A DNA stretch of 64,000 nt, from assembly GCF_013315695.1 (NCBI RefSeq), contig NZ_CP054353.1; one strand, given 5' to 3'. Source of the stretch: Escherichia coli (lineage in GTDB: Bacteria; Pseudomonadota; Gammaproteobacteria; Enterobacterales; Enterobacteriaceae). Shown one piece after another: positions 14,943 through 64,000 of this stretch. A model generated the notes under the pieces. It saw only the letters and a program-made list of their open reading frames with translations. It made no database searches and had not been told where the DNA came from. A program made the translations under genes and the position numbers. Each line of letters starts with the position of its first letter. Position 1 is the stretch's first letter.

Positions 14943-15902
14943 ATGAGTCTGAATTTCCTTGATTTTGAACAGCCGATTGCAGAGCTGGAAGCGAAAATCG
15001 ATTCTCTGACTGCGGTTAGCCGTCAGGATGAGAAACTGGATATTAACATCGATGAAGAAGTGCATCGTCTGCGTGAAAAAAGCGTAGAACTGACGCGTAA
15101 AATCTTCGCCGATCTCGGTGCATGGCAGATTGCGCAACTGGCACGCCATCCACAGCGTCCTTATACCCTGGATTACGTTCGCCTGGCATTTGATGAATTT
15201 GACGAACTGGCTGGCGACCGCGCGTATGCAGACGATAAAGCTATCGTCGGTGGCATCGCCCGTCTCGATGGTCGTCCGGTGATGATCATTGGTCATCAAA
15301 AAGGTCGTGAAACCAAAGAAAAAATTCGCCGTAACTTTGGTATGCCAGCGCCAGAAGGTTACCGCAAAGCACTGCGTCTGATGCAAATGGCTGAACGCTT
15401 TAAGATGCCAATCATCACCTTTATCGACACCCCGGGGGCTTATCCGGGCGTGGGCGCAGAAGAACGCGGTCAGTCTGAAGCCATTGCACGCAACCTGCGT
15501 GAAATGTCTCGCCTTAGCGTACCGACTATTTGTACCGTTATCGGTGAAGGTGGTTCTGGCGGCGCGCTGGCGATTGGCGTGGGCGATAAAGTGAATATGC
15601 TGCAATACAGCACCTATTCCGTTATCTCGCCGGAAGGTTGTGCGTCCATTCTGTGGAAGAGCGCCGACAAAGCGCCGCTGGCGGCTGAAGCGATGGGTAT
15701 CATCGCTCCGCGTCTGAAAGAGCTGAAACTGATCGACTCCATCATCCCGGAACCGCTGGGCGGCGCTCATCGTAACCCGGAAGCGATGGCGGCATCGTTG
15801 AAAGCGCAACTGCTGGCGGATCTGGCCGATCTCGACGTGTTAAGCACTGAAGATTTAAAAAATCGTCGTTATCAGCGCCTGATGAGCTACGGTTACGCGT
15901 AA
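14943..15902 (+). CDS. accA: Acetyl-CoA carboxylase carboxyltransferase alpha subunit
   Basis: 319-aa ORF; synteny after dnaE. Confidence 0.96.
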
Positions 15903-15926
15903 TTCGCAAAAGTTCTGAAAAAGGGT

Positions 15927-15937
15927 CACTTCGGTGG
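15927..15937. repeat. Left copy of the 11-bp target-site duplication flanking IS4 (cacttcggtgg)
   Basis: Identical 11-mer immediately precedes the IS4 left end and immediately follows its right end. Confidence 0.85.
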
Positions 15938-17363
15938 TAATGCCGATCAGTTAAGGATCAGTTGACCGATCCAGTGGCTGTGTAAGAATCCGGAAACGCT
16001 CACTTGTTTCCGGATTTTTTTATGCACATTGGACAGGCTCTTGATCTGGTATCCCGTTACGATTCTCTGCGTAACCCACTGACTTCTCTGGGGGATTACC
16101 TCGACCCCGAACTCATCTCTCGTTGCCTTGCCGAATCAGGTACTGTAACGCTACGCAAGCGCCGTCTTCCCCTCGAAATGATGGTCTGGTGTATTGTTGG
16201 CATGGCGCTTGAGCGTAAAGAACCTCTTCACCAGATTGTGAATCGCCTGGACATCATGCTGCCGGGCAATCGCCCCTTCGTTGCCCCCAGTGCCGTTATT
16301 CAGGCCCGCCAGCGCCTGGGAAGTGAGGCTGTCCGCCGCGTGTTCACGAAAACAGCGCAGCTCTGGCATAACGCCACGCCGCATCCGCACTGGTGCGGCC
16401 TGACCCTGCTGGCCATCGATGGTGTGTTCTGGCGCACACCGGATACACCAGAGAACGATGCAGCCTTCCCCCGCCAGACACATGCCGGGAACCCGGCGCT
16501 CTACCCGCAGGTCAAAATGGTCTGCCAGATGGAACTGACCAGCCATCTGCTGACGGCTGCAGCCTTCGGCACGATGAAGAACAGCGAAAATGAGCTTGCT
16601 GAGCAACTTATAGAACAAACCGGCGATAACACTCTGACGTTAATGGATAAAGGTTATTACTCACTGGGACTGTTAAATGCCTGGAGCCTGGCGGGAGAAC
16701 ACCGCCACTGGATGATACCTCTCAGAAAGGGAGCGCAATATGAAGAGATCAGAAAACTGGGTAAAGGCGATCATCTGGTGAAGCTGAAAACCAGCCCGCA
16801 GGCACGAAAAAAGTGGCCGGGACTGGGAAATGAAGTGACAGCCCGCCTGCTGACCGTGACGCGCAAAGGAAAAGTCTGCCATCTGCTGACGTCGATGACG
16901 GACGCCATGCGCTTCCCCGGAGGAGAAATGGCGGATCTGTACAGTCATCGCTGGGAAATCGAACTGGGATACAGGGAGATAAAACAGACGATGCAACTGA
17001 GCAGGCTGACGCTGAGAAGTAAAAAACCGGAGCTTGTGGAGCAAGAGCTGTGGGGTGTCTTACTGGCTTATAATCTGGTGAGATATCAGATGATTAAAAT
17101 GGCGGAACATCTGAAAGGTTACTGGCCGAATCAACTGAGTTTCTCAGAATCATGCGGAATGGTGATGAGAATGCTGATGACATTGCAGGGCGCTTCACCG
17201 GGACGTATACCGGAGCTGATGCGCGATCTTGCAAGTATGGGACAACTTGTGAAATTACCGACAAGAAGGGAAAGGGCCTTCCCGAGAGTGGTAAAGGAGA
17301 GGCCCTGGAAATACCCCACAGCCCCGAAAAAGAGCCAGTCAGTTGCTTAACTGACTGGCATTA
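15938..17363 (+). mobile_element. IS4 insertion sequence, complete copy (1426 bp)
   Basis: Terminal inverted repeats taatgccgatcagttaag (left) and cttaactgactggcatta (right; 16 of 18 match when reverse-complemented); a single transposase ORF; flanked by an 11-bp direct repeat. Confidence 0.9.
16022..17350 (+). CDS. insG: IS4 transposase (DDE family)
   Basis: 442 aa from the ATG at 16022 ([14 protein letters not shown]...), recognised as IS4-family transposase; the supplied ORF starts 6 codons upstream. Confidence 0.85.
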
Positions 17364-17374
17364 CACTTCGGTGG
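17364..17374. repeat. Right copy of the 11-bp target-site duplication flanking IS4
   Basis: cacttcggtgg repeated directly after the IS4 right end, followed by cccttttttat, the remainder of the split accA terminator. Confidence 0.85.
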
Positions 17375-17437
17375 CCCTTTTTTATCGCCACGGTTTGAGC
17401 AGGCTATGATTAAGGAAGGATTTTCCAGGAGGAACAC

Positions 17438-19579
17438 ATGAACATCATTGCCATTATGGGACCGCATGGCGTCTTTTATAAAGATGAGCCCATCAAAGAA
17501 CTGGAGTCGGCGCTGGTGGCGCAAGGCTTTCAGATTATCTGGCCACAAAACAGCGTTGATTTGCTGAAATTTATCGAACATAACCCTCGAATTTGCGGCG
17601 TGATTTTTGACTGGGATGAGTACAGTCTCGATTTATGTAGCGATATCAATCAGCTTAATGAATATCTCCCGCTATATGCCTTCATCAACACCCACTCGAC
17701 GATGGATGTCAGCGTGCAGGATATGCGGATGGCGCTCTGGTTTTTTGAATATGCGCTGGGGCAGGCGGAAGATATCGCCATTCGTATGCGTCAGTACACC
17801 AACGAATATCTTGATAACATTACACCGCCGTTCACGAAAGCCTTGTTTACCTACGTCAAAGAGCGGAAGTACACCTTTTGTACGCCGGGTCATATGGGCG
17901 GCACCGCATATCAAAAAAGCCCGGTTGGCTGTCTGTTTTATGATTTTTTCGGCGGGAATACTCTTAAGGCTGATGTCTCTATTTCGGTTACCGAGCTTGG
18001 TTCGTTGCTCGACCACACCGGGCCACACCTGGAAGCGGAAGAGTACATCGCGCGGACTTTTGGCGCGGAACAGAGTTATATCGTTACCAACGGAACATCG
18101 ACGTCGAACAAAATTGTGGGTATGTACGCCGCGCCATCCGGCAGTACGCTGTTGATCGACCGCAATTGTCATAAATCGCTGGCGCATCTGTTAATGATGA
18201 ACGATGTAGTGCCAGTCTGGCTGAAACCGACGCGTAATGCGTTGGGGATTCTTGGTGGGATCCCGCGCCGTGAATTTACTCGCGACAGCATCGAAGAGAA
18301 AGTCGCTGCTACCACGCAAGCACAATGGCCGGTTCATGCGGTGATTACCAACTCCACCTATGATGGCTTGCTCTACAACACCGACTGGATCAAACAGACG
18401 CTGGATGTCCCGTCGATTCACTTCGATTCTGCCTGGGTGCCGTACACCCATTTTCATCCGATCTACCAGGGTAAAAGTGGTATGAGCGGCGAGCGTGTTG
18501 CGGGAAAAGTGATCTTCGAAACGCAATCGACCCACAAAATGCTGGCGGCGTTATCGCAGGCTTCGCTGATCCACATTAAAGGCGAGTATGACGAAGAGGC
18601 GTTTAACGAAGCCTTTATGATGCATACCACCACCTCGCCCAGTTATCCCATTGTTGCTTCGGTTGAGACGGCGGCGGCGATGCTGCGTGGTAATCCGGGC
18701 AAACGGCTGATTAACCGTTCGGTGGAGCGGGCGCTGCATTTTCGCAAAGAGGTCCAGCGGCTGCGGGAAGAGTCTGACGGTTGGTTTTTCGATATCTGGC
18801 AACCGCCGCAGGTGGATGAAGCCGAATGCTGGCCCGTTGCGCCTGGCGAACAGTGGCACGGCTTTAACGATGCGGATGCCGATCATATGTTTCTCGATCC
18901 GGTTAAAGTCACTATTTTGACACCGGGGATGGACGAGCAGGGCAATATGAGCGAGGAGGGGATCCCGGCGGCGCTGGTGGCAAAATTCCTCGACGAACGT
19001 GGGATCGTAGTAGAGAAAACCGGCCCTTATAACCTGCTGTTTCTCTTTAGTATTGGCATCGATAAAACCAAAGCAATGGGATTATTGCGTGGGTTGACGG
19101 AATTTAAGCGCTCTTACGATCTCAACCTGCGGATCAAAAATATGCTGCCCGATCTCTATGCAGAAGATCCCGATTTCTACCGCAGTATGCGTATTCAGGA
19201 TCTGGCGCAAGGGATCCATAAGCTGATTCGTAAACACGATCTTCCCGGTTTGATGTTGCGGGCATTTGATACCTTGCCGGAGATGATCATGACGCCACAT
19301 CAGGCATGGCAGAGACAGATTAAAGGTGAAGTAGAAACCATTGCGCTGGAACAACTGGTCGGTAGAGTATCGGCAAATATGATCCTGCCTTATCCACCCG
19401 GCGTACCGCTGTTGATGCCTGGAGAAATGCTGACCGAAGAGAGCCGCACGGTACTCGATTTTCTACTGATGCTTTGTTCCGTAGGGCAACATTACCCCGG
19501 TTTTGAAACGGATATTCACGGCGCGAAACAGGACGAAGACGGCATTTACCGCGTACGAGTCCTAAAAATGGCGGGATAA
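17438..19579 (+). CDS. ldcC: Lysine decarboxylase, constitutive
   Basis: 713-aa PLP-dependent Orn/Lys/Arg decarboxylase; GGAGG ribosome-binding site upstream; synteny after accA. Confidence 0.93.
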   Translation: MNIIAIMGPHGVFYKDEPIKELESALVAQGFQIIWPQNSVDLLKFIEHNPRICGVIFDWDEYSLDLCSDINQLNEYLPLYAFINTHSTMDVSVQDMRMALWFFEYALGQAEDIAIRMRQYTNEYLDNITPPFTKALFTYVKERKYTFCTPGHMGGTAYQKSPVGCLFYDFFGGNTLKADVSISVTELGSLLDHTGPHLEAEEYIARTFGAEQSYIVTNGTSTSNKIVGMYAAPSGSTLLIDRNCHKSLAHLLMMNDVVPVWLKPTRNALGILGGIPRREFTRDSIEEKVAATTQAQWPVHAVITNSTYDGLLYNTDWIKQTLDVPSIHFDSAWVPYTHFHPIYQGKSGMSGERVAGKVIFETQSTHKMLAALSQASLIHIKGEYDEEAFNEAFMMHTTTSPSYPIVASVETAAAMLRGNPGKRLINRSVERALHFRKEVQRLREESDGWFFDIWQPPQVDEAECWPVAPGEQWHGFNDADADHMFLDPVKVTILTPGMDEQGNMSEEGIPAALVAKFLDERGIVVEKTGPYNLLFLFSIGIDKTKAMGLLRGLTEFKRSYDLNLRIKNMLPDLYAEDPDFYRSMRIQDLAQGIHKLIRKHDLPGLMLRAFDTLPEMIMTPHQAWQRQIKGEVETIALEQLVGRVSANMILPYPPGVPLLMPGEMLTEESRTVLDFLLMLCSVGQHYPGFETDIHGAKQDEDGIYRVRVLKMAG

Positions 19580-33162: not shown

Positions 33163-33345
33163 TCTCTGTAGTGATTAAATAAAAAATACTTCAGAGTGTA
33201 CCTGCAAAGGTTCACTGCGAAGTTTTGCTCTTTAAAAATCTGGATCAAGCTGAAAATTGAAACACTGAACAACGAAAGTTGTTCGTGAGTCTCTCAAATT
33301 TTCGCAACACGATGATGAGTCGAAAGAAACATCTTCGGGTTGTGA

Positions 33346-36632: not shown

Positions 36633-37272
36633 CGTCTATATTTCTATTATTGCTTAAATCGCAAAAATCCTCTGCGTTTTACGCCCTTTTTCCGCAACAT
36701 TCTAAAGCCCATAATCACTTCAGTTAACGAAAATAGCATTAAAAGAGGCATATTATGGCTATCCCTGCATTTGGTTTAGGTACTTTCCGTCTGAAAGACG
36801 ACGTTGTTATTTCATCTGTGAAAACGGCGCTAGAACTTGGTTATCGCGCAATTGATACCGCACAAATCTATGATAACGAAGCCGCAGTAGGTCAGGCGAT
36901 TGCAGAAAGTGGCGTGCCGCGTCATGAACTCTACATCACCACTAAAATCTGGATTGAAAATCTCAACAAAGCTAAATTGATCCCGAGTCTGAAAGAGAGC
37001 CTGCAAAAATTGCGTACCGATTATGTTGATCTGACGCTAATCCACTGGCCGTCACCAAACGATGAAGTCTCTGTTGAAGAGTTTATGCAGGCGCTGCTGG
37101 AAGCCAAAAAACATGGGCTGACGCGTGAGATCGGTATTTCCAACTTCACGATCCCATTGATGGAAAAAGCGATTGCTGCTGTTGGCGCTGAAAACATCGC
37201 TACTAACCAGATTGAACTCTCTCCTTATCTGCAAAACCGTAAAGTGGTCGCTTGGGCTAAACAGCACGGCAT

Positions 37273-37281
37273 CCATATTAC
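37273..37281. repeat. Left copy of the 9-bp target-site duplication flanking IS1 (ccatattac)
   Basis: Identical 9-mer directly before and after the IS1 termini. Confidence 0.9.
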
Positions 37282-37336
37282 GGTGATGCTGCCAACTTAC
37301 TGATTTAGTGTATGATGGTGTTTTTGAGGTGCTCCA

Positions 37337-37612
37337 GTGGCTTCTGTTTCTATCAGCTGTCCCTCCTGTTCAGCTACTGACGGGGTGGTGCGTAACGGCA
37401 AAAGCACCGCCGGACATCAGCGCTATCTCTGCTCTCACTGCCGTAAAACATGGCAACTGCAGTTCACTTACACCGCTTCTCAACCCGGTACGCACCAGAA
37501 AATCATTGATATGGCCATGAATGGCGTTGGATGCCGGGCAACAGCCCGCATTATGGGCGTTGGCCTCAACACGATTTTACGTCACTTAAAAAACTCAGGC
37601 CGCAGTCGGTAA
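37337..37612 (+). CDS. insA: IS1 InsA (transposition inhibitor; N-terminal part of InsAB' transposase)
   Basis: 91-aa ORF with zinc-finger cysteines (CPSC...CSHC). Confidence 0.92.
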
Positions 37613-38034
37613 CCTCGCGCATACAGCCGGGCAGTGACGTCATCGTCTGCGCGGAAATGGACGAACAGTGGGGCTATGTCGGGGCTAAATCGCGCCAGCG
37701 CTGGCTGTTTTACGCGTATGACAGGCTCCGGAAGACGGTTGTTGCGCACGTATTCGGTGAACGCACTATGGCGACGCTGGGGCGTCTTATGAGCCTGCTG
37801 TCACCCTTTGACGTGGTGATATGGATGACGGATGGCTGGCCGCTGTATGAATCCCGCCTGAAGGGAAAGCTGCACGTAATCAGCAAGCGATATACGCAGC
37901 GAATTGAGCGGCATAACCTGAATCTGAGGCAGCACCTGGCACGGCTGGGACGGAAGTCGCTGTCGTTCTCAAAATCGGTGGAGCTGCATGACAAAGTCAT
38001 CGGGCATTATCTGAACATAAAACACTATCAATAA
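37531..38034 (+). CDS. insB: IS1 InsB reading frame (expressed as InsAB' by -1 frameshift at the ttaaaaaac motif, 37588..37594)
   Basis: 167-aa ORF in the -1 frame relative to insA, overlapping its 3-prime end; slippery A6C sequence present. Confidence 0.88.
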
Positions 38035-38049
38035 GTTGGAGTCATTACC

Positions 38050-38058
38050 CCATATTAC
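38050..38058. repeat. Right copy of the 9-bp target-site duplication flanking IS1
   Basis: ccatattac repeated immediately after the IS1 right end. Confidence 0.9.
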
Positions 38059-38331
38059 TTCCTATATGACGCTGGCGTATGGTAAGGCCCTGAAAGATGA
38101 GGTTATTGCTCGTATCGCAGCTAAACACAATGCGACTCCGGCACAAGTGATTCTGGCGTGGGCTATGGGGGAAGGTTACTCAGTAATTCCTTCTTCTACT
38201 AAACGTAAAAACCTGGAAAGTAATCTTAAGGCACAAAATTTACAGCTTGATGCCGAAGATAAAAAAGCGATCGCCGCACTGGATTGCAACGACCGCCTGG
38301 TTAGCCCGGAAGGTCTGGCTCCTGAATGGGA

Positions 38332-39246
38332 TTAAGCCTCTCTGACAGCTCCTCCGGGAGCTGTTTTTACATGCTCGCTAAGGAAATCGATAAAAGCCCG
38401 GATGCGTGTACTTACCGCACGGTCGCTGTAATATACGGCACTGAATGGCATTTCCACTGGCAATACTTTATCTGCCATTAACTCCACCAATTCTCCGCGA
38501 GCGATTTCTCTGTCGATCATGTAGTCGGACAAACACGCAATCCCGTTGCCACTCAGGCAAAGCTGTTTCAGTGTTTCCCCACTATTGGATGACAAACCGT
38601 ACTTCACCTCATGTAATTGTCCATCGCTACAGGCTATCGGCCAGGTATTGAGGGAAGCGGGTTCAGTGAATCCCAGGCAAACATGTTGCTTTAAATCGTC
38701 GATCGTTTCTGGCTTCCCGTAGCGGGAAATATAATCGGGGGAGGCGATAATTTTTCGATAACTGTTAAATAACGGCCTGGCACGTAAGCTGGAATCCGTT
38801 AACGTACCGGCGCGTATCGCGACATCCACTTTTCTTTCGATCAAATTAATAATTGTTTCGGAGGAGACTAGTGATAAAGTGACTTCCGGATAGCGTTCAC
38901 GGAAAGGCTTAATCAACGGCATCAGAAAGTGCAGCACCACTGGAGTTGCGGCATCGATGCGCAACAGTCCACGCGGTGTATTACGCGTCTCCATAATTTC
39001 TGATTCTGCCGCTGCCATCTCCTGCAAAATTGACTGTACGCGACGAAAATAACGCTCGCCTTCTTCCGTCAGGCTAAGTTGCCGCGTGGTCCGATTAAGC
39101 AGGCTAACGCCAAGTTTCATCTCCAGCTTTTTCACCGCCCGGCTTACCGCTGAGTTTGCTTGCCCTAATTGTTCCGCTGCCCGGCTAAAGCTGCCGCTTT
39201 CGACGACCGAAACAAAAATGGCGAGTTCTTCCGACGTGGCTTTCAT
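38332..39246 (-). CDS. yafC: LysR-family transcriptional regulator
   Basis: 304-aa ORF with N-terminal helix-turn-helix and LysR substrate-binding domain; convergent with dkgB. Confidence 0.9.
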
Positions 39247-52894: not shown

Positions 52895-53726
<832 letters not shown>

Positions 53727-53820
53727 ATCTGTGCATTTTTTGCGAGCCGCTTTCCCGTTTTTCCATCACCTCATTGCTGACCTTTCCTTTTCTTCTTACC
53801 GTTGAGAAAAAGGAGTCGCT

Positions 53821-54318
53821 ATGTCTGAATATCGTCGTTATTACATCAAGGGGGGAACATGGTTTTTCACGATAAATTTGCGGAATCGTCGAAGCCAACT
53901 TTTGACCACCCAGTACCAGACGCTCCGTAACGCCATTGTTAAAGTTAAGCGAGCCAGACCTTTTGAAATTAACGCCTGGGTAGTCTTGCCAGAGCATATG
54001 CACTGTATCTGGACATTACCTGAAAGCGATGATGATTTTTCCTCTCGCTGGCGTGAGATTAAAAAACAGTTCACTCAAACTTGCGAAATGAAAAATATCT
54101 GGCAACCGCGTTTTTGGGAGCACGCCATCCGCAATACCAAAGATTATCGCCATCATGTTGATTATATTTATATAAATCCAGTAAAACATGGCTGGGTAAA
54201 GCAAGTGAGTGATTGGCCATTCTCAACGTTCCATCGCGATGTCGCGAAAGGGTTATATCCCATCGATTGGGCGGGGGACGTAACGGATTTAAATGCTGGC
54301 GAGCGTATTATTTTATAA
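53821..54318 (+). CDS. rayT: REP-associated tyrosine transposase
   Basis: 165-aa ORF (IS200/IS605 TnpA-like) flanked on both sides by REP sequences. Confidence 0.9.
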   Translation: MSEYRRYYIKGGTWFFTINLRNRRSQLLTTQYQTLRNAIVKVKRARPFEINAWVVLPEHMHCIWTLPESDDDFSSRWREIKKQFTQTCEMKNIWQPRFWEHAIRNTKDYRHHVDYIYINPVKHGWVKQVSDWPFSTFHRDVAKGLYPIDWAGDVTDLNAGERIIL

Positions 54319-54326
54319 TTGTGCGC

Positions 54327-54436
54327 TGATGCCGGATGCGCTTACGCTTATCCAGCCTACGAATCGTGCCTTAACAGTAGGACGGATAAGGCGTTTACGC
54401 CGCATCCGGCAGTTGTGCACCGGTGCCGGATACCTA
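54327..54436. repeat. REP/BIME palindromic elements
   Basis: tgccggatgcgcttacgcttatccagcctac ... gtaggacggataaggcgtttacgccgcatccggc. Confidence 0.8.
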
Positions 54437-56527
54437 CATCAACGCCCCCATAATCTTCAACTCCAGCTCGTCCGGCACTTCGTTATACGACAGCACATGC
54501 AGCCCCGGTGCAAACAATCTCGCATAGCGCGCCAGCAAAGGGCGCAACTGCGGTGGCACCAGCAGCACAGGGTCTTTCCCCGCCGCTTTCATCTGCTCCT
54601 TCACCTGCGGCATCGTGTTCTGGAACTGGTTAAGCATATTCGGGTCCACCGGCACGCTGTCGAGCATCACTTTGCCGCCCTGTTGCGCCTGATTCACTAC
54701 GTTGGTCAGCAGATTTTCCAGCTCATTATTCAGCGTATACACCGTCAGCTCCTGTTTGCGAACGAACGGATGGGTAATGCTGCGCCGCAGCGCCAGGCGC
54801 ACATCGGCCGCCAGCAGAATATGATCTTTAGTCACCGCACTACTGGCGACCAGCACGGTGGCGATGGTGACGATATCGCGCAGGGAAACGCCTTCGGTCA
54901 GCAGCGTCCGGTACACTTTCAGCAACTGGCTGTAGTTGAGCGCCGCGCTCAAATCTTCCGCCAGGCGCGGTGCCATCGACGACAGGCGGTTATGCAACTG
55001 CGTGATGTCATCATAGTTAAATAATTCAGGAATATAGCTGCGCACAATCTTATTCACATGGGTGGCAATCACGCTGGCGCTGTCGATCACCTGATACCCC
55101 ATATTCAGCGCCTTCGCTTTCTGCGCAGGCTGGATCCAGGTGACCGGCATCCCATATGCCGGGTCATTCCCCAGTACGCCGTCAATCTCGCCGTAGGTTT
55201 CGCTGGAGGGCAACGCCATCAGTTTATCTGCCGGAATATCCGCTTCATCGGCCTTAATGCCGTTGATGAATATGGCGTACTGGCTGGGCTTGAGGCGGAA
55301 GTTTTCCCGAATACGGATCTCCGGCAGCAGCACGCCGTTGCCGTCGGAAATCACCTGCCGCACGCCGCGAATCCGCTGGGTGAGCGGGTTACCTTGGGCT
55401 TTATCGACCAGCGCCACCAGCTTGTAGCCGAGACTTAAGCTGATAGGCTCGATCAGCGGAATGGTTTCCCAACTGACCTGTTGCTCGCTGGTTTCGGTGA
55501 TGGTGCGGGTCAGTGTTTCGAGGCTTTTCTCTTCCGCCTCCGCCGCCTGCGGGCGTTTGCTCATCCGCCAGCCGGTAAAGCCAAGCAGGGCGCTGAACAG
55601 CAAAAATGGCAGATGCGGCATCCCCGGCACCACCGCCAGCACAAACATGATCCCGGTGGCGGTGTAGAGCACCGACGGGCTTGCCAGCAGCTGGTGGCGC
55701 ACGTCATGGGCGATATCGCCGTTGTCGCTGACGCGGGTGACGATAATTGCCGCCGCGGTGGAGAGCAGCAGGGACGGGATCTGCGCCACCAGGCCGTCGC
55801 CGATGGTCATCAGCACATATTGCTGGAAGGCGGCGTCGGCGCTCAGGTTGTATTTGAAGATGCCGATACAGACGCCGCCGATCAGGTTGATCGCCAGAAT
55901 CATCATCCCGGCGATGGCATCGCCGCGCACAAACTTCGATGCCCCGTCCATCGCGCCGTAGAAATCGGCCTCGCTGGCAACATCTTTACGCCGTGTTTGC
56001 GCCTGCGCCTGGTTGATCAATCCGGCGTTAAGATCGGCGTCAATCGCCATCTGCTTGCCGGGCATCGCGTCCAGGGTAAAGCGGGCAGAAACCTCGGAAA
56101 TACGCTCGGCCCCTTTGGTGACGACGATAAAGTTGATGATCATCAGGATGATAAACACCACAAAGCCGACGACAAAGTTGCCGCCAATCACCACCTGACC
56201 AAATGACTCAATCACCTTACCCGCCGCGCCTGCGCCGAGATGCCCGTGCAGCAGCACCACGCGCGTAGAAGCAACGTTAAGCGTCAGGCGCATTAAAGTG
56301 GTGATCAGCAAAATGGTCGGGAACAGGCTGAATTCCAGCGGTCGTTTCGCCGACACCGCCACCAGCAGCACCATCACCGCCAGCACAATGTTGAAGGTGA
56401 ACAGAATATCCAGCAGCGCAGGCGGCAGCGGCAGAATAACCATCGCCAGAATACAAAGTATAACCAGCGGTACGCCGAGATTACCGCCGCGCAGCAGCGC
56501 GAGGAACGATTTAGTTGTTTTCGCCAT
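54434..56527 (-). CDS. lfhA: Flagellar-type export apparatus protein, FlhA homologue (second flagellar system)
   Basis: 697-aa ORF with N-terminal polytopic membrane domain and FlhA-like cytoplasmic domain; intact. Confidence 0.85.
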   Translation of the reverse strand: MAKTTKSFLALLRGGNLGVPLVILCILAMVILPLPPALLDILFTFNIVLAVMVLLVAVSAKRPLEFSLFPTILLITTLMRLTLNVASTRVVLLHGHLGAGAAGKVIESFGQVVIGGNFVVGFVVFIILMIINFIVVTKGAERISEVSARFTLDAMPGKQMAIDADLNAGLINQAQAQTRRKDVASEADFYGAMDGASKFVRGDAIAGMMILAINLIGGVCIGIFKYNLSADAAFQQYVLMTIGDGLVAQIPSLLLSTAAAIIVTRVSDNGDIAHDVRHQLLASPSVLYTATGIMFVLAVVPGMPHLPFLLFSALLGFTGWRMSKRPQAAEAEEKSLETLTRTITETSEQQVSWETIPLIEPISLSLGYKLVALVDKAQGNPLTQRIRGVRQVISDGNGVLLPEIRIRENFRLKPSQYAIFINGIKADEADIPADKLMALPSSETYGEIDGVLGNDPAYGMPVTWIQPAQKAKALNMGYQVIDSASVIATHVNKIVRSYIPELFNYDDITQLHNRLSSMAPRLAEDLSAALNYSQLLKVYRTLLTEGVSLRDIVTIATVLVASSAVTKDHILLAADVRLALRRSITHPFVRKQELTVYTLNNELENLLTNVVNQAQQGGKVMLDSVPVDPNMLNQFQNTMPQVKEQMKAAGKDPVLLVPPQLRPLLARYARLFAPGLHVLSYNEVPDELELKIMGALM

Positions 56528-57650
56528 CCAGTTTAAGCACCTCTTTGGGAATGGAAATATGTCTGTTCAGGGCCGGGCGCGGCTGTGCGCCCTCGCGCCA
56601 GTGTTTCATTTGCAGGACGTAGGTCAGAACGTGGGCGATAGCCCGGTAAAGCTGAAACGGAATTTGTTGGTTCACCTGCGTGGTGTAGTAAACCGAGCGC
56701 GCCAGCCGCGGGAACTCGACCACTTCCACCTGATTCTCAGCGGCGACCTGGCGAATATAGAGGGCGATTTCATCGGTGCCTTTTGCCACCACAAACGGCG
56801 CGGCGGCGCGAGACTGGTCATACTGCAACGCCACGGCGTAGTGGGTCGGGTTGGTGATCACCACGTTGGCTTTCGGCACCACTTTGCGGATTTGCCCCAT
56901 CGCCAGCTGCCGTTGCAGCCGTCGCACGCGCGCCTTCACTTCCGGCTTGCCTTCCTGATTTTTGTACTCTTCTTTCAGCTCCTGCTTGGTCATCTTCAGC
57001 CCTTTGGTAAACAGGGCTTTCGCCAGCGGCACGTCGATAAGCGCAAAGAAGATAAACAGGATGACAAAGTTGCGCATCACGCTGGCGTAGAGCGACAAAC
57101 CCTCATTCATCGCCAGTTTGAACGGCAGCGCTTGCAGGCCGAGGAAGGCGGCAAAGTTATTGCGCAGGCTAATCCACAGCATCACCAGCACCACCACCGA
57201 CTTCGCCGTCATCTTTCCCGTTTCCGCCAGATGTTCACTGGAAAACAGCCGCCCAATCCCTTTTAACGGGCTAATTTTGCTGAAATCCGGGAGGATTTTT
57301 TTCGGCAGAAACAGCCAGCCGCCAGGCACCAGCGAGGAGAGCAGCGCAGCGGCGGGCATCGGCAGCAAGGTAAGAATAAACTTGCCGAGAATTAACAGGT
57401 GATGGCGCAGAAACTGGCCGATCACATCCGGGTTATTAATCTCCTGCGCGTACTGATGCACGCTGATAAAACTCTCACGCACAAAATCGGCATACCACGG
57501 GAAGCTGCTGGAGATCACCACAAACGCCGCAAACAGGCTCGCCGCCAGCCCCATATCCTTCGAGCGCGGCAGTTGCCCCTCTTCACGCGCTTTACGCAGC
57601 TTTTGCGCCGAGGGTTTCTCTGTTTTTTCTTCGCTGCTGCTATCCGCCAT
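56511..57650 (-). CDS. lfhB: Flagellar-type export apparatus protein, FlhB homologue
   Basis: 379-aa ORF with an FlhB-like N-terminus (MADSSSEEKTEKPSAQKLRKAREEGQ...). Confidence 0.85.
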   Translation of the reverse strand: MADSSSEEKTEKPSAQKLRKAREEGQLPRSKDMGLAASLFAAFVVISSSFPWYADFVRESFISVHQYAQEINNPDVIGQFLRHHLLILGKFILTLLPMPAAALLSSLVPGGWLFLPKKILPDFSKISPLKGIGRLFSSEHLAETGKMTAKSVVVLVMLWISLRNNFAAFLGLQALPFKLAMNEGLSLYASVMRNFVILFIFFALIDVPLAKALFTKGLKMTKQELKEEYKNQEGKPEVKARVRRLQRQLAMGQIRKVVPKANVVITNPTHYAVALQYDQSRAAAPFVVAKGTDEIALYIRQVAAENQVEVVEFPRLARSVYYTTQVNQQIPFQLYRAIAHVLTYVLQMKHWREGAQPRPALNRHISIPKEVLKLDGENN

Positions 57651-58422
57651 AGTGACCTTTCAGCGCGTCGAGTTGCTGCAACACAAAATTCGCCAGATGC
57701 AGATAGTGATCCGGCAGGTTGTAGAGCAGGGTGGCGAAGCAAACCAGCCCCGCCAGCATGTTGATGGGAAAGCCGAGCGAAAAAAGGTTCAGCGGCGGCG
57801 CAATGCGGTTAAGCAGGCCAAAGCAGCCCTGCACAATCAGCATGATAAAAGTGGTCGGCAGCGCCAGCAGTGATGCGGACGCCAGCACCCAGCTAAAGGC
57901 CAGCGCGATGGTGCGCAGGGGTTGCGGATGCAGCGCGTTGCCAATCGGCCAGTAGGTGAAGCCCTTATACAGCACGCTTACCAGCAGCAGATGCCCGTCC
58001 ATGGCAAAAAACAGCAGGATCGCGTAGACGTTAATTAACTCTGCCAGCACGGTTGTTGATGCGCCGCTGCTCGGGGCGTTCATCACCGCCATGCTCATCC
58101 CCATATTGAACGAGAGAATTTGCCCGGCCAGTTGCAGCGCCAGAAACAGAAACTGAAACATCAGCCCGAACAACATGCCCCATAATATTTGCTCCACCGT
58201 CAGGATCAGGCTATTGAGCGATAGCAGGTCGTGGGGAATGGGATGGGGGATCAACGGCGTGATGATGATCGCCAGCGCCAGCGACAATATAATCCGCACG
58301 CGCACGGTCAGGGCGCTGTTATCCAGCACCGGCACATAGCGCAGAAACGCCATAATGCGCACGAAGGGGAACCACAGCCCCAGCACCAGATCCATCAGTT
58401 GCGTAACGTCGCTTGTGCGCAT
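57640..58422 (-). CDS. lfiR: Flagellar-type export apparatus protein, FliR homologue
   Basis: About 260-aa polytopic membrane ORF from the internal Met; the supplied ORF extends to 58473. Confidence 0.8.
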   Translation of the reverse strand: MRTSDVTQLMDLVLGLWFPFVRIMAFLRYVPVLDNSALTVRVRIILSLALAIIITPLIPHPIPHDLLSLNSLILTVEQILWGMLFGLMFQFLFLALQLAGQILSFNMGMSMAVMNAPSSGASTTVLAELINVYAILLFFAMDGHLLLVSVLYKGFTYWPIGNALHPQPLRTIALAFSWVLASASLLALPTTFIMLIVQGCFGLLNRIAPPLNLFSLGFPINMLAGLVCFATLLYNLPDHYLHLANFVLQQLDALKGHYGG

Positions 58423-58423
58423 C

Positions 58424-58696
58424 TTAATGCACCAGCAGGGCGGCCTGACTAAACAGATGAATGCAGAGATCATGCAACTGGATAATCATCCATTTGCCGC
58501 ACACCCCCAGCACCACCAGCGTGACAATCAGCCTTGGCAAAAAGCTCAGGGTCTGTTCGTTAATCTGCGTCACCGCCTGGAACACGCTCACCAGCAGGCC
58601 GACCAGCAGGCTTGGCACCACCAGTACCGAAACCAGCAAAATCACTACTTTAATGCCGCTGGCGACAATGTCGGCGGCTACGTCTACGGTCAACAT
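58424..58696 (-). CDS. lfiQ: Flagellar-type export apparatus protein, FliQ homologue
   Basis: 90-aa two-helix membrane ORF. Confidence 0.82.
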   Translation of the reverse strand: MLTVDVAADIVASGIKVVILLVSVLVVPSLLVGLLVSVFQAVTQINEQTLSFLPRLIVTLVVLGVCGKWMIIQLHDLCIHLFSQAALLVH

Positions 58697-58698
58697 AA

Positions 58699-59451
58699 TC
58701 AGCCCAGCCCCAGCCCGCGAATGCTGGTGGTGAGCGTGCCGATGGTCAGCGACCAGCCGTCAATCAGCACAAACAGCATCAGTTTAAAGGGCAGCGAAAC
58801 AATCAGCGGCGACAGCATCATCATCCCCATCGCCATCAGTACGCTGGCGACAATCAGGTCGATAACCAGAAACGGGATGTAAATCATAAAGCCAATCTGG
58901 AAAGCGGTTTTCAGCTCGCTCAGTACATAGGCGGGCACCACGATGGAGAGATCCTGGTCGGCGGCATTGCCCTTCGCGCCGCCGATGGTCATGATTTGCG
59001 CCATCGCTTTTTTGTCGGTCTGCGCCAGCATAAAGCGTTTTAGCGGCGTCGCGGCGGTGCTTAACGCATCGGTCAGGGTAATCTGATCGTTTTCAAACGG
59101 CACTACCGCGTGGTCGTAAATATTGAGCCAGATGGGGCGCATTACCAGCAGGGTGAGTGAGAGCGCAATACCTATCAGAATGCGGTTCGGCGGCGTTTGT
59201 TGCAGCCCCAGCGCCTGGCGCAGCAGCGACAGCACGATAATAAAGCGCGTAAAGCAGGTCATCATCAGCACCATCGTCGGCAGCAAACCGACGAGGGTCA
59301 TCAGAATCAGTACCTGAATTTTGACGCTGTACTCCTGAGTGTTGCCGTGGGTCACCACGTTAAGTAGCGCAATATCGCCACCCTGGGCCAACGCCAGCGG
59401 CGCAAGCGCCAGCAGCCCAAGGCCCAGCGCCAGTTGAGTGCGGCGTTTCAT
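58699..59451 (-). CDS. lfiP: Flagellar-type export apparatus protein, FliP homologue
   Basis: 250-aa ORF with signal peptide and conserved FliP C-terminal region. Confidence 0.85.
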   Translation of the reverse strand: MKRRTQLALGLGLLALAPLALAQGGDIALLNVVTHGNTQEYSVKIQVLILMTLVGLLPTMVLMMTCFTRFIIVLSLLRQALGLQQTPPNRILIGIALSLTLLVMRPIWLNIYDHAVVPFENDQITLTDALSTAATPLKRFMLAQTDKKAMAQIMTIGGAKGNAADQDLSIVVPAYVLSELKTAFQIGFMIYIPFLVIDLIVASVLMAMGMMMLSPLIVSLPFKLMLFVLIDGWSLTIGTLTTSIRGLGLG

Positions 59452-59819
59452 GGTGCCAGGTCGTTGATATCGCGGGTGTTAAACTCCAGCACGCGCAGGC
59501 CGTACTTCTCGTTGACCACCACCACTTCCGCTTTGCCCAGCAGGATATTGTTCACTTTAATATCCAGCGGCTCCCCGGCGAGTTTATCCAGCTCAATCAC
59601 CGTGTCGTCGTCGATGTTAAGCAGGTCGGCTAACATAATTTCCACCGACGACACTTCCAGCGTTAAGGTCACCGGAATGCGTTTCAGCAGCGTCATCGAG
59701 TCGGAAAAGCGGTCTTCCAGGCGGGTGACCAGCGTTTCGGCGTCGGCGGATTTCGTGACAGGCGCAACTTCATCGGCGAGGCCAAAATCCCCGGCTAAAA
59801 TATCGTCTTGTTTACTCAT
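59448..59819 (-). CDS. lfiN: Flagellar switch protein, FliN homologue
   Basis: About 124 aa from the internal Met, with C-terminal SpoA-like domain; the supplied ORF extends to 59879 and would overlap lfiM by 68 bp. Confidence 0.78.
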   Translation of the reverse strand: MSKQDDILAGDFGLADEVAPVTKSADAETLVTRLEDRFSDSMTLLKRIPVTLTLEVSSVEIMLADLLNIDDDTVIELDKLAGEPLDIKVNNILLGKAEVVVVNEKYGLRVLEFNTRDINDLAP

Positions 59820-60663
59820 GGCTATTCTCATTCTTGCCCGCCAGCTCCGACAAAAACAGTTTGTCTTTGTCTTCCACAATCAGGGCGCTAAATAATTCAG
59901 ATTGCCCAATCGCCACCGGGAACGTTTCTCCCAGCGAGATGGGTAAAATATCCCCGGCTTTTATCTGCGCCAGATCGGCGACATTCATCGATAGCTCGGC
60001 GATTTTGACGTTCAGGGTCAGCGGCAGGGAGCGGATGATTTCTTTAATCAGGGCCGGTTTATTAACGGATTTCGCCACCTGCTGCGGTTTACTGTGCTCG
60101 CTGTGGCGGATCAGATTCAAAATAAAATCGGTGTGGGCGTCGTCGAGCAAAATACGAAAACTGCTCTCTTCATCGCCCGCAAGGGTAAAGGTTAATTGAT
60201 ACGCCCAGTGGGTAATCACCGTGCTGCTGTCCAGTTTTAATTTCAGCGCAATACCGGAGGTTTGCAGATTAAAGATCAGCGTGCAGATATCCAGCGCGAG
60301 TCGGTTCTTTAACCGCGTTTCGGTTTTGGTCGGCAGCCCGTTATGCGCTTTCGCCTCTTCAAGAGAGGACTCCAGACCATAAAAATTGCCCAGCAGCATT
60401 AACAGCAAGGAGCGATCAATATCAAACGCCAGATGCCCGACCTGGGAAACCATCAGTTCGGCGTTTTTATTAATAATATCCATTTCGCAGCCAATCTTTT
60501 TTAGGGTGATATTGCTGCGATGCTTTTTGAGAAAGTAGCTGCCAAGATGCGAATCAATCACGTCAAAATTCCCCGTAAACAGGGTCGGCAGGCGATGGTA
60601 GGGGCGTCCGAGCCGATTACCTTCTAATTTAAAGATGCCTGGCGTTTTACTGTACTTCAGCAT
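59812..60663 (-). CDS. lfiM: Flagellar switch protein, FliM homologue
   Basis: 283-aa ORF at the head of the minus-strand lfiMNPQR-lfhBA block. Confidence 0.75.
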   Translation of the reverse strand: MLKYSKTPGIFKLEGNRLGRPYHRLPTLFTGNFDVIDSHLGSYFLKKHRSNITLKKIGCEMDIINKNAELMVSQVGHLAFDIDRSLLLMLLGNFYGLESSLEEAKAHNGLPTKTETRLKNRLALDICTLIFNLQTSGIALKLKLDSSTVITHWAYQLTFTLAGDEESSFRILLDDAHTDFILNLIRHSEHSKPQQVAKSVNKPALIKEIIRSLPLTLNVKIAELSMNVADLAQIKAGDILPISLGETFPVAIGQSELFSALIVEDKDKLFLSELAGKNENSHE

Positions 60664-60842
60664 GGCTTACTTTCTCTGCTGTAATGGTATGGGCGTTGTT
60701 GTGCACGCAAATCCGGCAGTGACACAAGGTGAGGTATTAAATAGAGGGGGCGTGAAAGGGGCAAATTATTAATAGGGTGAAAAAATAATTAAATTATTAA
60801 AGGGCGAGGTATCGGGCATCGTCATAAAACATTGCACGAATT

Positions 60843-60925
60843 GTAGGCCTGATAAGAGGCGCAGCGTCGCATCAGGCATCGGTGCACAATTGCCGGATGG
60901 CGGCGTAAACGCCTTATCCGGCCTA
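60843..60925. repeat. REP/BIME palindromic elements in the lfiM-lafK divergent intergenic region
   Basis: gtaggcctgataagaggcgcagcgtcgcatcaggc and gccggatggcggcgtaaacgccttatccggcctac. Confidence 0.8.
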
Positions 60926-61050
60926 CGGTTCTAACTCATTGTTTATCAACAAATAATATTTTTATTATCGTTTAATTCGAACTTGTTAATCCCGCCGGTG
61001 ATACGCTTCAGAACATCCTGTTTTCTGTCGCTACTTATATCGTTCACCCT

Positions 61051-62037
61051 ATGTCTGAACTTATTGCAACTGCCGCTTCCAGCATTAACGCTTTTACTCT
61101 GGCAAAGCGTGTCGCCGCCTTTAACGTGCCGGTGCTCATTCAGGGCGAAACCGGCGCGGGCAAAGAATGCGTGGCGAAATATATTCACACCGTAGCCTTT
61201 GGTGAAAATGAAAGCGCACCCTATGTCGGCGTGAACTGCGCGGCGATCCCGGAAAATATGCTGGAATCCACGCTATTTGGCTATGACAAAGGCGCATTTA
61301 CCGGCGCAATTGCCAGCGTGCCAGGAAAAATGGAACTGGCAAATAACGGCTCCTTATTGCTCGATGAAATTGGTGAAATGCCGCTGGCGCTACAGGCCAA
61401 AATATTACGCGTGTTGCAGGAACAACAGGTTGAGCGATTAGGCAGCAACCGACAAATCAAACTCAATTTTCGCCTGATTGCCTGCACCAATAAAAACCTG
61501 GAGCAGGAAGTTGCCGCCGGACGTTTTCGTGAAGATCTCTATTATCGTCTGGCGGTTATCCCTATTACCATGCCGCCACTGCGTGAACGCCTGAACGATA
61601 TTATTCCGCTGGCGGAGTCATTTATTAAAAAATACTCCACGGTGCTGGTGAAAAATATCACCCTGTCCGAATCCACCCGCCGTGCGCTGCTTAATTACCG
61701 CTGGCCCGGTAACGTGCGCCAACTGGAAAACGCCATTCAGCGGGGAATGATTTTAAATCGCGACGGCGTAATTTACCCGGATGCATTAGGCCTGCTGGAA
61801 ACGGACGTTGCTGACCACAGCGAACTGCAATGGCCTGTTCAGCCCGCCGTCCACATTGCCGAAACCAGCGATTTGGGCCAGCACGGACGAAGCGCGCAAT
61901 ATCAATATATCGCCGACCTGATGCGTAAATATCAGGGCAACCGCAGCAAAATCGCCGACCTGTTAGGCATTACCCCGCGCGCACTGCGCTATCGACTGGC
62001 CTCCATGCGCAAGCAAGGTATCGAAGTTTTCTCCTGA
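61051..62037 (+). CDS. lafK: Sigma54-dependent transcriptional activator (AAA+ and HTH domains only)
   Basis: 328-aa ORF; Walker A GETGAGKE at about residue 32, GAFTGA sigma54-contact motif, C-terminal HTH; no receiver or other N-terminal domain. Confidence 0.8.
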   Translation: MSELIATAASSINAFTLAKRVAAFNVPVLIQGETGAGKECVAKYIHTVAFGENESAPYVGVNCAAIPENMLESTLFGYDKGAFTGAIASVPGKMELANNGSLLLDEIGEMPLALQAKILRVLQEQQVERLGSNRQIKLNFRLIACTNKNLEQEVAAGRFREDLYYRLAVIPITMPPLRERLNDIIPLAESFIKKYSTVLVKNITLSESTRRALLNYRWPGNVRQLENAIQRGMILNRDGVIYPDALGLLETDVADHSELQWPVQPAVHIAETSDLGQHGRSAQYQYIADLMRKYQGNRSKIADLLGITPRALRYRLASMRKQGIEVFS

Positions 62038-62051
62038 CCCGGAAGTTAAAA

Positions 62052-62393
62052 ATGAGCATTACCACAATCAACAGCACCATGCAGGCGCAAATCATGCAGG
62101 ACGTGCAGCGGATGCAGGCCAACGCCCAGGCACCGGTGCTGCCCGCCATGACCTTCAGTTCCACCGACCCGGACGTTTCGTTTAACCGCATTATGAGCGG
62201 TGCGCTCGGTCATGTTGACCAGTTCCAGCAGGTGGCGGAGCAGCAGCAAACGGCTGTCGACACGGGCAAAAGTGATGACCTTGCCGGGGCGATGATCGCC
62301 AGCCAGCAGGCGTCGCTCTCTTTCTCCGCGCTGGTGCAGGTGCGCAACAAAATCGCCACCGGATTTAACGATCTGATGAGTATGTCGATCTAA
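62052..62393 (+). CDS. lfiE: Flagellar hook-basal body protein, FliE homologue
   Basis: 113-aa ORF with conserved FliE C-terminus (...VQVRNKIATGFNDLMSMSI). Confidence 0.8.
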   Translation: MSITTINSTMQAQIMQDVQRMQANAQAPVLPAMTFSSTDPDVSFNRIMSGALGHVDQFQQVAEQQQTAVDTGKSDDLAGAMIASQQASLSFSALVQVRNKIATGFNDLMSMSI

Positions 62394-62397
62394 CCCT

Positions 62398-64000
62398 ATG
62401 AATGCACAAATAAAGAAGTTAACCCAGGCGTTTCCGGCGTTTCGACTGCGTCTTGCAGATAACAAACGCTGGGCATTGATGGCGGGAGTGGGGCTTGCCG
62501 TTGCGGCGACGGCGATTATCGTCAGCGTACTGTGGACCGGTAATCGCGGCTACGTCTCGCTCTACGGACGCCAGGAAAATCTGCCCGTGTCGCAGATTGT
62601 CACCGTGCTGGATGGCGAAAAGCTCAGCTACCGCATCGACCCGCAAAGCGGGCAGATTCTGGTGCCGGAAGATGAACTGTCGAAAACGCGCATGACCCTT
62701 GCTGCCAAAGGCGTGCAGGCGATCTTGCCCAGCGGCTACGAGCTGATGGACAAAGACGAAGTGCTCGGCAGCAGCCAGTTCGTGCAGAACGTGCGCTACA
62801 AACGCAGCCTCGAAGGGGAGCTGGCGCAGAGCATTATGTCGCTGGACGCGGTGGAGAGCGCGCGGGTGCATCTGGCGCTCAACGAAGAGAGCTCGTTTGT
62901 GGTCAGCGATGAGCCGCAAAACAGCGCCTCGGTGGTGGTGCGTCTGCATTACGGCGCGAAGCTGAATATGGACCAGGTGAACGCCATTGTGCATCTGGTT
63001 TCCGGCAGCATTCCGGGGCTGCACGCCAGCAAAGTTAGCGTCGTCGATCAGGCGGGAAATCTGCTGACCGACGGCATTGGCGCGGGCGAAGCGGTTTCAG
63101 CCGCTACCCGTAAACGCGATCAGATCCTCAAAGATATTCAGGACAAAACCCGCGCCAGCGTGGCGAACGTGCTGGATTCGCTGGTCGGCAGCGGGAATTA
63201 CCGCGTCAGCGTCATGCCGGATCTCGACCTCAGTAATATCGATGAAACTCAGGAACACTACGGCGACGCGCCGAAAATCAACCGCGAAGAAAACGTGCTG
63301 GACAGCGATACCAATCAGGTGGCGATGGGTGTGCCCGGTTCGCTTAGCAACCGCCCGCCGGTTGCACCTAATCAGGTTACTAACGGCGCGATGCCCGCCG
63401 ACGAAAATCGCTCGCCGGAAGCCCTTTCGAAACACAGCGAAAGCAAGCGCGATTACTCTTACGACCGCAGCGTCCAGCATATTCAGCATCCCAGCTTTAC
63501 GGTGAAACGCCTCAACGTGGCGGTGGTGCTCAATCAAAACGCTCCGGCGCTGAAAAACTGGAAGCCGGAGCAGACCACGCAGCTTACCGCGCTGCTGAAC
63601 AATGCCGCCGGGATCGACGCGCAACGTGGAGACAATCTCACCTTATCGCTGCTTAACTTTGTCCCGCAGGCGGTGCCGGTCGAACCAATTATTCCGTTGT
63701 GGAAAGATGACAGCGTGCTGGCCTGGGTGCGGCTGATTGGCTGCGGCCTGCTGGCGCTGTTGTTGCTGTTCTTTGTGGTGCGCCCGGTAATGAAACGACT
63801 GACGGCGGTACGTGCGCCGGTTATCACACCAGAACCGGAAGCTGTCAGCGAACCGTGGATTGCCATGCCGGAAGAGGAACGCAAAAACGTCGATCTGCCG
63901 TCGCTGCCCGGCGATGACAGCCTGCCGTCCCAGAGTTCCGGCCTCGAAGTAAAACTCGAGTTCCTGCAAAAACTGGCCATGAGCGACACCGATCGCGTAG
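62398..64000 (+). CDS. lfiF: Flagellar MS-ring protein, FliF homologue (3-prime end cut by window edge)
   Basis: Open frame from the ATG at 62398 to the window end (over 530 codons) with N-terminal and late transmembrane segments typical of FliF; absent from the supplied ORF track, presumably because no stop codon lies inside the window. Confidence 0.8.
   Translation, partial: MNAQIKKLTQAFPAFRLRLADNKRWALMAGVGLAVAATAIIVSVLWTGNRGYVSLYGRQENLPVSQIVTVLDGEKLSYRIDPQSGQILVPEDELSKTRMTLAAKGVQAILPSGYELMDKDEVLGSSQFVQNVRYKRSLEGELAQSIMSLDAVESARVHLALNEESSFVVSDEPQNSASVVVRLHYGAKLNMDQVNAIVHLVSGSIPGLHASKVSVVDQAGNLLTDGIGAGEAVSAATRKRDQILKDIQDKTRASVANVLDSLVGSGNYRVSVMPDLDLSNIDETQEHYGDAPKINREENVLDSDTNQVAMGVPGSLSNRPPVAPNQVTNGAMPADENRSPEALSKHSESKRDYSYDRSVQHIQHPSFTVKRLNVAVVLNQNAPALKNWKPEQTTQLTALLNNAAGIDAQRGDNLTLSLLNFVPQAVPVEPIIPLWKDDSVLAWVRLIGCGLLALLLLFFVVRPVMKRLTAVRAPVITPEPEAVSEPWIAMPEEERKNVDLPSLPGDDSLPSQSSGLEVKLEFLQKLAMSDTDRV

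Follow-up and report, generated by a model that had tools for sequence, protein, structure and literature searches.

In a window of 64,000 nucleotides of Escherichia coli DNA (contig NZ_CP054353.1 of assembly GCF_013315695.1; the term "window" is used below for this whole stretch), a complete copy of the insertion sequence IS4 lies between accA and ldcC, which raises the question of why the element came to be located at this particular position and whether its presence affects the genes on either side. A first-pass annotation had placed the element within the terminator of accA, had regarded the insertion as recent, and had considered it plausible that transcription of accA reads into IS4 or that expression of ldcC is altered. 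The present computational analysis deals with the element, its target site, its distribution among E. coli genomes and the structures located at its ends. The explanation that we regard as highly probable is that an ordinary and complete IS4 was inserted once into a near-ideal target, the accA terminator, and has been vertically inherited ever since with a nearly neutral effect.

An intact IS4 copy in the accA terminator

The element is a complete IS4 copy of 1426 bp (Table 1), being 99.7% identical over its entire length to insG-annotated copies, including that of the laboratory strain RR1, and 100% identical to a copy in strain 2452. Its transposase gene was recovered as the uninterrupted 442-amino acid reading frame that had been described before; the RefSeq annotation is longer and assumes a TTG start at position 16004, thereby specifying 448 amino acids. 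The encoded protein matches NCBIfam NF033592 with 304 bits (cutoff 115), contains the Pfam domains Nterm_IS4 (7.6e-33) and DDE_Tnp_1 (1.1e-31), and its translation includes the Y-2-R-3-E-6-K motif. The 18-bp terminal inverted repeats mentioned in the first-pass annotation are present, but they are imperfect, with TAATGCCGATCAGTTAAG and TAATGCCAGTCAGTTAAG (the latter being the right end in reverse complement) matching at 16 of 18 positions. The IS4 subgroup is characterized by a size of approximately 1400-1650 bp, a target duplication of 10-13 bp and the end signature -AATR--------WTW (PMC2266710, Table 1 for size). The copy analyzed here agrees with the subgroup in size and in its 11-bp duplication, in its ends (AATG at positions 2-5 and TTA at positions 14-16), in its single-ORF DDE/YREK transposase and in its near-identity to the reference IS4. 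Considering that the reading frame and both ends are intact, and that the lineage contains approximately 17 copies (see below), this copy is apparently functional and presumably able to transpose. No further copies of the IS4 end sequence were found within the 64-kb window.

Table 1 Position, strand and supporting evidence of the features at the accA-ldcC locus (positions refer to the window)
Feature	Position	Strand	Evidence or remark
accA coding sequence, upstream neighbour	14943..15902	+	ORF list; annotated as accA in near-identical genomes
Split accA terminator, left half (A-tract, ascending arm, UUCG loop, start of descending arm)	15916..15937	+	Sequence, inverted repeat, fold of the reconstructed site
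Target-site duplication CACTTCGGTGG, left copy	15927..15937	.	Repeat listing, 100% identity
IS4, complete	15938..17363	+	99.7-100% identity to IS4 copies in other E. coli
Left terminal inverted repeat TAATGCCGATCAGTTAAG	15938..15955	+	Sequence, inverted-repeat listing
Transposase promoter-like site (TTGACC, 16-bp spacer, TG-extended AAGAAT)	15962..15989	+	Consensus scan; putative function
IS4 left-end hairpin (arms 15984-15997 and 16006-16019) and U7 up to the transposase ATG	15984..16021	+	Inverted repeat, fold
IS4 transposase gene	16022..17350	+	ATG to stop, 442 aa, ORF intact on translation
Right-end hairpin and T-run, inward reading, terminator-like with respect to ldcC-side transcription	17324..17359	-	Terminator scan
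Right terminal inverted repeat TAATGCCAGTCAGTTAAG (minus-strand reading)	17346..17363	-	Sequence, inverted-repeat listing
Target-site duplication CACTTCGGTGG, right copy	17364..17374	.	Repeat listing, 100% identity
Split accA terminator, right half (loop, descending arm, T6 tract)	17364..17383	+	Residual fold of -4.5 kcal/mol
Candidate ldcC -10 region GCTATGATTAA, resembling an RpoS-type extended -10	~17403..17413	+	Read from sequence; downstream of the insertion
ldcC coding sequence, downstream neighbour	17438..19579	+	ORF list; annotation

Re-inspection of the flanks showed that the 11-bp direct repeat reported previously, CACTTCGGTGG, is indeed present and perfect on both sides of the element, the probability of such a repeat occurring by chance at a given pair of positions being approximately 2e-7. 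Deletion of IS4 and one repeat copy generates the empty site AAAAAGGGTCAC-TTCG-GTGGCCCTTTTTT (in its longer context GAAAAAGGGTCACTTCGGTGGCCCTTTTTTAT), in which a stem of 12 bp, including one G.U pair, is capped by a UUCG loop and followed by a U6 tract, the A-tract at the base of the stem starting 16 nt 3' of the accA stop codon. The reconstructed 60-nt context is predicted to fold at -23.5 kcal/mol (z = -4.7), and the site has the form of an intrinsic (Rho-independent) terminator, that is, a GC-rich stem-loop followed by a U-tract beyond a stop codon, as the first-pass annotation had recognized. Its further statement that the insertion splits this terminator holds as well, with both halves being unstructured once separated. 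The coordinates agree with the distance and orientation originally given: the transposase gene and its neighbours accA and ldcC share the + strand, and 74 bp separate the end of IS4 from the ldcC ATG.

A young insertion inherited within a small clone

The frequency of the insertion was determined in 5426 complete E. coli genomes, employing the 251-nt reconstruction as the empty-site query at a coverage of at least 80%. The empty accA site was retrieved from 5414 genomes, and the reconstruction is 100% identical to the uninterrupted accA-ldcC region in many of these. Both filled junctions were found in only two genomes, NZ_LR898874.1 (strain MSB1_4I, obtained from a rectal swab in Australia) and NZ_OZ547117.1 (isolate AF3, obtained from a blood culture in the UK). 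Over 64 kb, the window and MSB1_4I share 99.984% identity (BLAST; one indel), and the corresponding value for AF3 is 99.967% over 36 kb, the respective IS copies differing from the one analyzed here by 0 and 1 nt, respectively, and both genomes carry the insertion in the same orientation and with the same 11-bp duplication. A query consisting of the junction produced 18 matches in either genome, equivalent to approximately 17 IS4 copies and the accA flank. Across the entire set of 5426 genomes, 2686 contain IS4; the median copy number is one, and the highest is 32.

As judged by these sequence comparisons, the insertion is not private to a single strain, being young and clonally inherited, so that the recent event proposed in the first-pass annotation is borne out by the numbers of filled and empty sites. 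It constitutes a marker of this lineage, a small E. coli clone in which IS4 copies have accumulated. In all likelihood it goes back to a single insertion in a recent ancestor that the source of the window shares with MSB1_4I and AF3, and was passed on vertically.

Several other features of the window were recorded. In MSB1_4I, dkgB is annotated as two fragments split by an IS1A element, which corresponds to positions ~36754-38334 of the window (with the transposase at ~37336-38033). A second flagellar cluster, comprising flhA, flhB, fliR, fliQ, fliP, a fliM/N-like gene, a sigma-54-dependent regulator gene, fliE and fliF, occupies positions ~54433-64000 and resembles the Flag-2 lateral flagellar locus, which is largely deleted in K-12. 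Rfam matches to the REP-derived naRNA4 are located at 53644-53721 (+) and 60846-60923 (-), one of them adjoining an annotated rayT gene (REP-associated tyrosine transposase, 53820-54317), and a match to StyR-44 is located at 33230-33338 in the spacer directly upstream of a 23S rRNA gene.

The accA terminator is a near-ideal IS4 target

Sequence similarity between the accA locus and other IS4 copies does not stop at the IS ends but continues for another 20-30 bp, which revealed that other IS4 sites resemble the accA site. The preference of IS4 for terminator hairpins of this form, a property already known for the element (De Palmenaer et al.), is an aspect that the first-pass annotation missed. 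GTDB species-representative genomes were scanned with the 22-nt left end of IS4, yielding 113 distinct left flanks from approximately 18 genera, among which are Aeromonas, Pectobacterium, Kosakonia, Budvicia, Photorhabdus, Buttiauxella, Silvania and Dryocola; many of these flanks originate from few genomes (20 from Kosakonia and 13 from one soil MAG), and the sole E. coli sequence in the set is a contaminant contig. The latter, contig L041 (265 bp) of Methylobacterium mesophilicum NBRC 15688, contains the IS4 left end next to a flank identical to the RR1 insG site and, on the strength of this identity, is probably a contamination by DNA of an E. coli laboratory strain.

Nearly all of the 113 flanks display the same succession of elements, consisting of an A-run, a GC-rich arm, a loop and the beginning of the complementary arm, at which point IS4 starts. 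Adenine is present at each of the positions -19, -18 and -17 in 79-85% of the sites, and the exact trinucleotide AAA at -19 to -17 in 60%, compared to 2.1% at random control positions on the same contigs; the accA site carries AAA in the identical register relative to the IS end. For 23 distinct sites, both flanks and a perfect duplication were available, the duplications measuring 11-14 bp (mostly 12 bp). Within this set, the centre of the duplication is located no more than 0.5 nt from the centre of the hairpin loop in 21 of the 22 hairpin-bearing sites. A folding energy of -12 kcal/mol or lower was obtained for 83% of the two-flank sites and for 11% of the controls. In Pectobacterium aroidearum L6 (L109/L110, at ~0.95 and 1.06 Mb), two IS4-like copies possess swapped target duplications, the left one of each copy being the right one of the other, which indicates an inversion of approximately 110 kb through recombination between both copies.

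Eleven further IS4 sites in E. coli include the terminators of rpoD (rpoD-mug), glmS, gapA, zapB/rraA and lpp. When these are taken together with the 113 other sites, IS4 is seen to interrupt a terminator of the A-tract/GC-hairpin/T-tract type in nearly every case. Six E. coli example sites were chosen on the basis of flank similarity to the query and are consequently biased, a bias from which the 113-site set and five further E. coli sites are free; glcA-gspK and an epimerase-dehydrogenase spacer are among the unbiased sites. Two of the unbiased sites are particularly informative as to which part of the target is recognized. One IS4 copy is located inside fiu and is still found at the terminator-like sequence AAAAAACG...CGTTTTT, and the insG copy of strain RR1, the position of which is taken to be the K-12 site, is flanked by AAA-N20-TTT with a hairpin being absent. 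On the basis of these two sites it can be argued that the transposase recognizes the A and T tracts and the distance between them, in which case terminators would be targeted as the commonest natural sequence with an A-tract/T-tract form. As a separate observation, many unrelated strains of E. coli, IAI39, CE10 and UMNF18 among them, carry IS4 in the rpoD-mug terminator with a 13-bp duplication (CACCTTTTCGGTG), which reflects either an old insertion that has become widespread or a hotspot that is hit repeatedly.

A two-sided weight matrix was then derived from the 113 foreign flanks and applied to every position of the IS-free, 62.6-kb window. This symmetric representation of the target is justified by the right flanks of full copies, which score like the left flanks (9.5 and 10.2 bits, respectively). 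The accA terminator ranks first among approximately 62,500 positions, coding sequence included, with a score of 21.5 bits at an offset of 1 nt and of 19.5 bits at the actual cut. The 11-mer singled out in the first-pass annotation consequently lies in a context that fits the model obtained from 113 other IS4 sites. The next-best predicted targets in the window, given as duplication ends, are 17931 (inside ldcC), 47120, 49693 and 41158, all of which are unoccupied.

IS4-type transposases, according to the model that we favour, introduce staggered cuts 11-14 bp apart and symmetrically positioned on a target made up of an A-tract, a GC-rich segment of ~18-20 bp (usually a palindrome) and a T-tract. 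This is precisely how a two-sided intrinsic terminator is built, which explains the choice of the accA terminator as a near-ideal target. IS4 insertions are to this extent predictable from sequence, as illustrated by the top-scoring position of the accA terminator in 62 kb, and they concentrate in the terminators of highly expressed genes.

Hairpins and a promoter-like site carried by IS4

Between the left end of IS4 and the transposase ATG, an inverted repeat followed by a U7 tract is predicted to fold at -29.7 kcal/mol (z = -6.1). An alignment of 22 variants revealed that the 15-pair stem is kept and that compensatory double changes have taken place in 5 of the 15 pairs (one such pair being GC in 11, UA in 7 and AU in 4 variants, and another AU in 9, UA in 6 and CG in 5 variants), the U-tract being invariant. 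This hairpin and its U7 tract are read here as a putative inward-facing terminator or insulator directed against outside transcription. A consensus terminator scan of the + strand left the hairpin unflagged, probably owing to scan rules that extended the stem into the T-run, and no Rfam family matched the IS4 region with an E value of 1 or lower.

The sole promoter-like site on the + strand of the IS4 left end has a -10 sequence that overlaps the base of the left arm of this hairpin. Because the element's own -10 overlaps one of the two arms, only transcripts that start externally are expected to form the complete structure. A transcript arriving from outside, in this case from accA, would fold the hairpin and be terminated immediately ahead of the transposase ATG, while a transposase transcript starting approximately 7 nt beyond the -10 would lack the left arm and thereby escape.

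At the opposite end of the element, a hairpin associated with a T-run reads inward on the minus strand. It is kept in most variants, and those variants that end in TAATGCTTG... carry a different hairpin and T-run instead; the occurrence of two different structures at the same position supports a functional role. As far as the predicted folds allow this to be judged, IS4 thus appears to possess a terminator directed inward at either end, by which the two-sided terminator split upon insertion would be restored. On the + strand, no hairpin with a U-tract was found after the transposase stop codon, the residual hairpin that precedes the T6 tract reaching only -4.5 kcal/mol, and neither did the scan detect a hybrid promoter reading outward from the right junction, where manually assembled -35/-10 candidates were poor. 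The early gal operon literature is said to have reported a strong polarity of IS4 in both orientations.

Predicted consequences for accA and ldcC

The left IS4 hairpin would stop transcripts of accA approximately 120 nt beyond the accA stop codon. According to the modelled folds, such transcripts should end at about position 16020 rather than 15950, in a new 3' hairpin whose stability equals or exceeds that of the original one. The strong and covarying hairpin and the U7 tract in front of the transposase ATG make it unlikely that accA read-through drives the transposase gene, so that this suggestion of the first-pass annotation is no longer favoured.

Regarding ldcC, native sequence is retained from position 17364 onward and includes the -35 and -10 regions; with respect to a guessed transcription start, the sequence at approximately -53 and further upstream has been replaced. 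The candidate -10 region, GCTATGATTAA, is likened to the extended -10 consensus of sigma-S-dependent promoters, and this motif is the basis for assuming that the ldcC core promoter, situated 30-50 bp downstream of IS4, is probably intact. RpoS dependence of ldcC expression is stated in PMC4832331, which cites Kikuchi 1998, and this dependence was the only information on the matter in the literature searched, in which an ldcC promoter or transcription start was not found. The altered expression of ldcC that had been thought plausible must accordingly be divided into two parts. A large effect is not predicted, since native sequence is retained from 17364; a weak read-out of transposase transcripts into ldcC is possible, as the + strand sequence contains no recognizable terminator beyond the transposase stop codon. 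The 3' end of accA or the expression of ldcC could be modestly altered by the insertion. Taking together the inward-reading hairpin and U-tract at each end, the expected arrest of accA transcripts ahead of the transposase ATG and an untouched ldcC core promoter, we infer that the insertion is probably near neutral, and the fact that it persists in isolates from two continents speaks against a strong cost.

Alternative explanations

Different accounts of how the element came to be seen at this position were considered. IS elements are often misassembled, and the junctions might on this ground be viewed as an assembly artefact; this can practically be dismissed, seeing that both junctions are contained in two complete assemblies deposited independently from different countries, which argues for a real insertion, and that a perfect duplication combined with exact reconstruction of the empty site is the signature of a genuine transposition. 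Given that accA is the best-scoring local target and that IS4 also occupies other terminators, for instance that of rpoD-mug, in numerous unrelated strains, MSB1_4I and AF3 might also have acquired IS4 independently at a hotspot. Such a scenario is very improbable in view of the shared orientation and duplication, the identity of ~99.97-99.98% across 36-64 kb of flanking DNA, the IS copies that are 0-1 nt apart, and the equal number of matches (18 places) in both genomes. It appears just as improbable that the insertion was untargeted and that its position within a terminator merely reflects the tolerance of intergenic insertions and their survival under selection. Persisting insertions are generally intergenic, and terminator-like sequences are enriched upstream of IS elements of several families, according to a recent survey (bioRxiv 10.1101/2025.07.22.666184). 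An untargeted insertion would, however, leave unexplained the exact register of the AAA at -19 to -17 and of the duplication with respect to the loop centre, the first rank of the accA site even when coding sequence is scanned, the location of the fiu insertion at a terminator-like sequence within a coding gene, and the retention of AAA-N20-TTT at the hairpin-free RR1 site.

A further alternative concerns the outcome of the insertion, and holds that gene expression was rewired, either through accA read-through that drives the transposase gene or through a change in ldcC expression caused by loss of upstream sequence, by accA read-through or by read-out from the IS element. This reading is unlikely, though less so than the ones above. 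It accords with the destruction of the native accA terminator, neither half of which folds, with the co-orientation of the three genes, with the lack of a + strand hairpin and U-tract past the transposase stop codon, and with the exchange of sequence upstream of approximately -53. It is at odds with the covarying hairpin and U7 tract positioned between accA and the transposase ATG and with the retained native -35/-10 sequence of ldcC, and the occurrence of the clone on two continents indicates that the insertion is not strongly deleterious. A single, targeted and nearly neutral insertion therefore remains the preferred explanation of this locus.

Comparison with known systems

The locus itself is of little consequence, representing a known element that behaves as expected. 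Its relevance lies in the interpretation of IS polymorphisms, in the annotation of terminators and in the question of how IS elements are tolerated at such sites. Tentatively, and with somewhat less than even confidence, we propose that elements of the IS4 subgroup are self-repairing terminator hunters, which recognize tracts and palindromes, cut symmetrically around the loop, and carry inward terminators at both ends by which the element makes up for the terminator it has destroyed and is itself insulated. If true, this design would explain the persistence of IS4 behind the highly expressed genes lpp, gapA, rpoD and glmS. The logic of replacement and insulation, backed by covariation, may perhaps not have been stated explicitly before; likewise, the combination of targeting with covarying inward terminators at both ends may be under-described, and it extends the known facts without overturning any.

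The copy described here shares its 1426-bp length, its ends and its 442-aa DDE/YREK transposase with IS4 of K-12 (insG), the founding member of the IS4 family and subgroup. It differs from the insG copy of strain RR1 in location alone, being situated in the accA terminator instead of at an AAA-N20-TTT sequence that lacks a hairpin.

In IS10 and IS50, read-through transcripts reportedly fold back on the transposase start or otherwise occlude it, which protects both elements from external promoters. IS4 would resemble both in this self-protection, with its own -10 overlapping a hairpin arm so that only outside transcripts are predicted to fold; unlike in IS10 and IS50, the IS4 hairpin runs into a U7 tract, which gives it the appearance of a full intrinsic terminator. 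A cross-family survey describes terminator-like sequences upstream of and inside IS elements and interprets them as limiting transposase expression, with the strongest signal for IS200/IS605 and with "IS4" occurring only once in its text (bioRxiv 10.1101/2025.07.22.666184). The general observation is the same and is presented in the survey as family-level statistics; the splitting of a terminator and its replacement by the element are not described in the passages considered here.

With regard to target choice, Klaer, Starlinger and co-workers, as well as Mayaux et al. in 1984, are said to have reported a single IS4 hot spot in galT, an insertion in the pheST attenuator terminator and the consensus AAA-N20-TTT. 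These early papers reportedly rested on a handful of sites. The high target specificity and the AAA/TTT flanks of the galT and pheST insertions are shared by the sites analyzed here, and in one of the two early cases the insertion was likewise located in a terminator hairpin. Targeting of extragenic palindromes has been described for IS1397, ISKpn1 and IS621 at REP/BIME sequences, and for ISRm22, a member of the IS4 family (PMC1525189). Insertion into intergenic palindromes as a safe-haven strategy is common to these elements and IS4, yet in contrast to the repeated family of sequences that is targeted at REP/BIME, the targets of IS4 are unique gene terminators bordered by A and T tracts.
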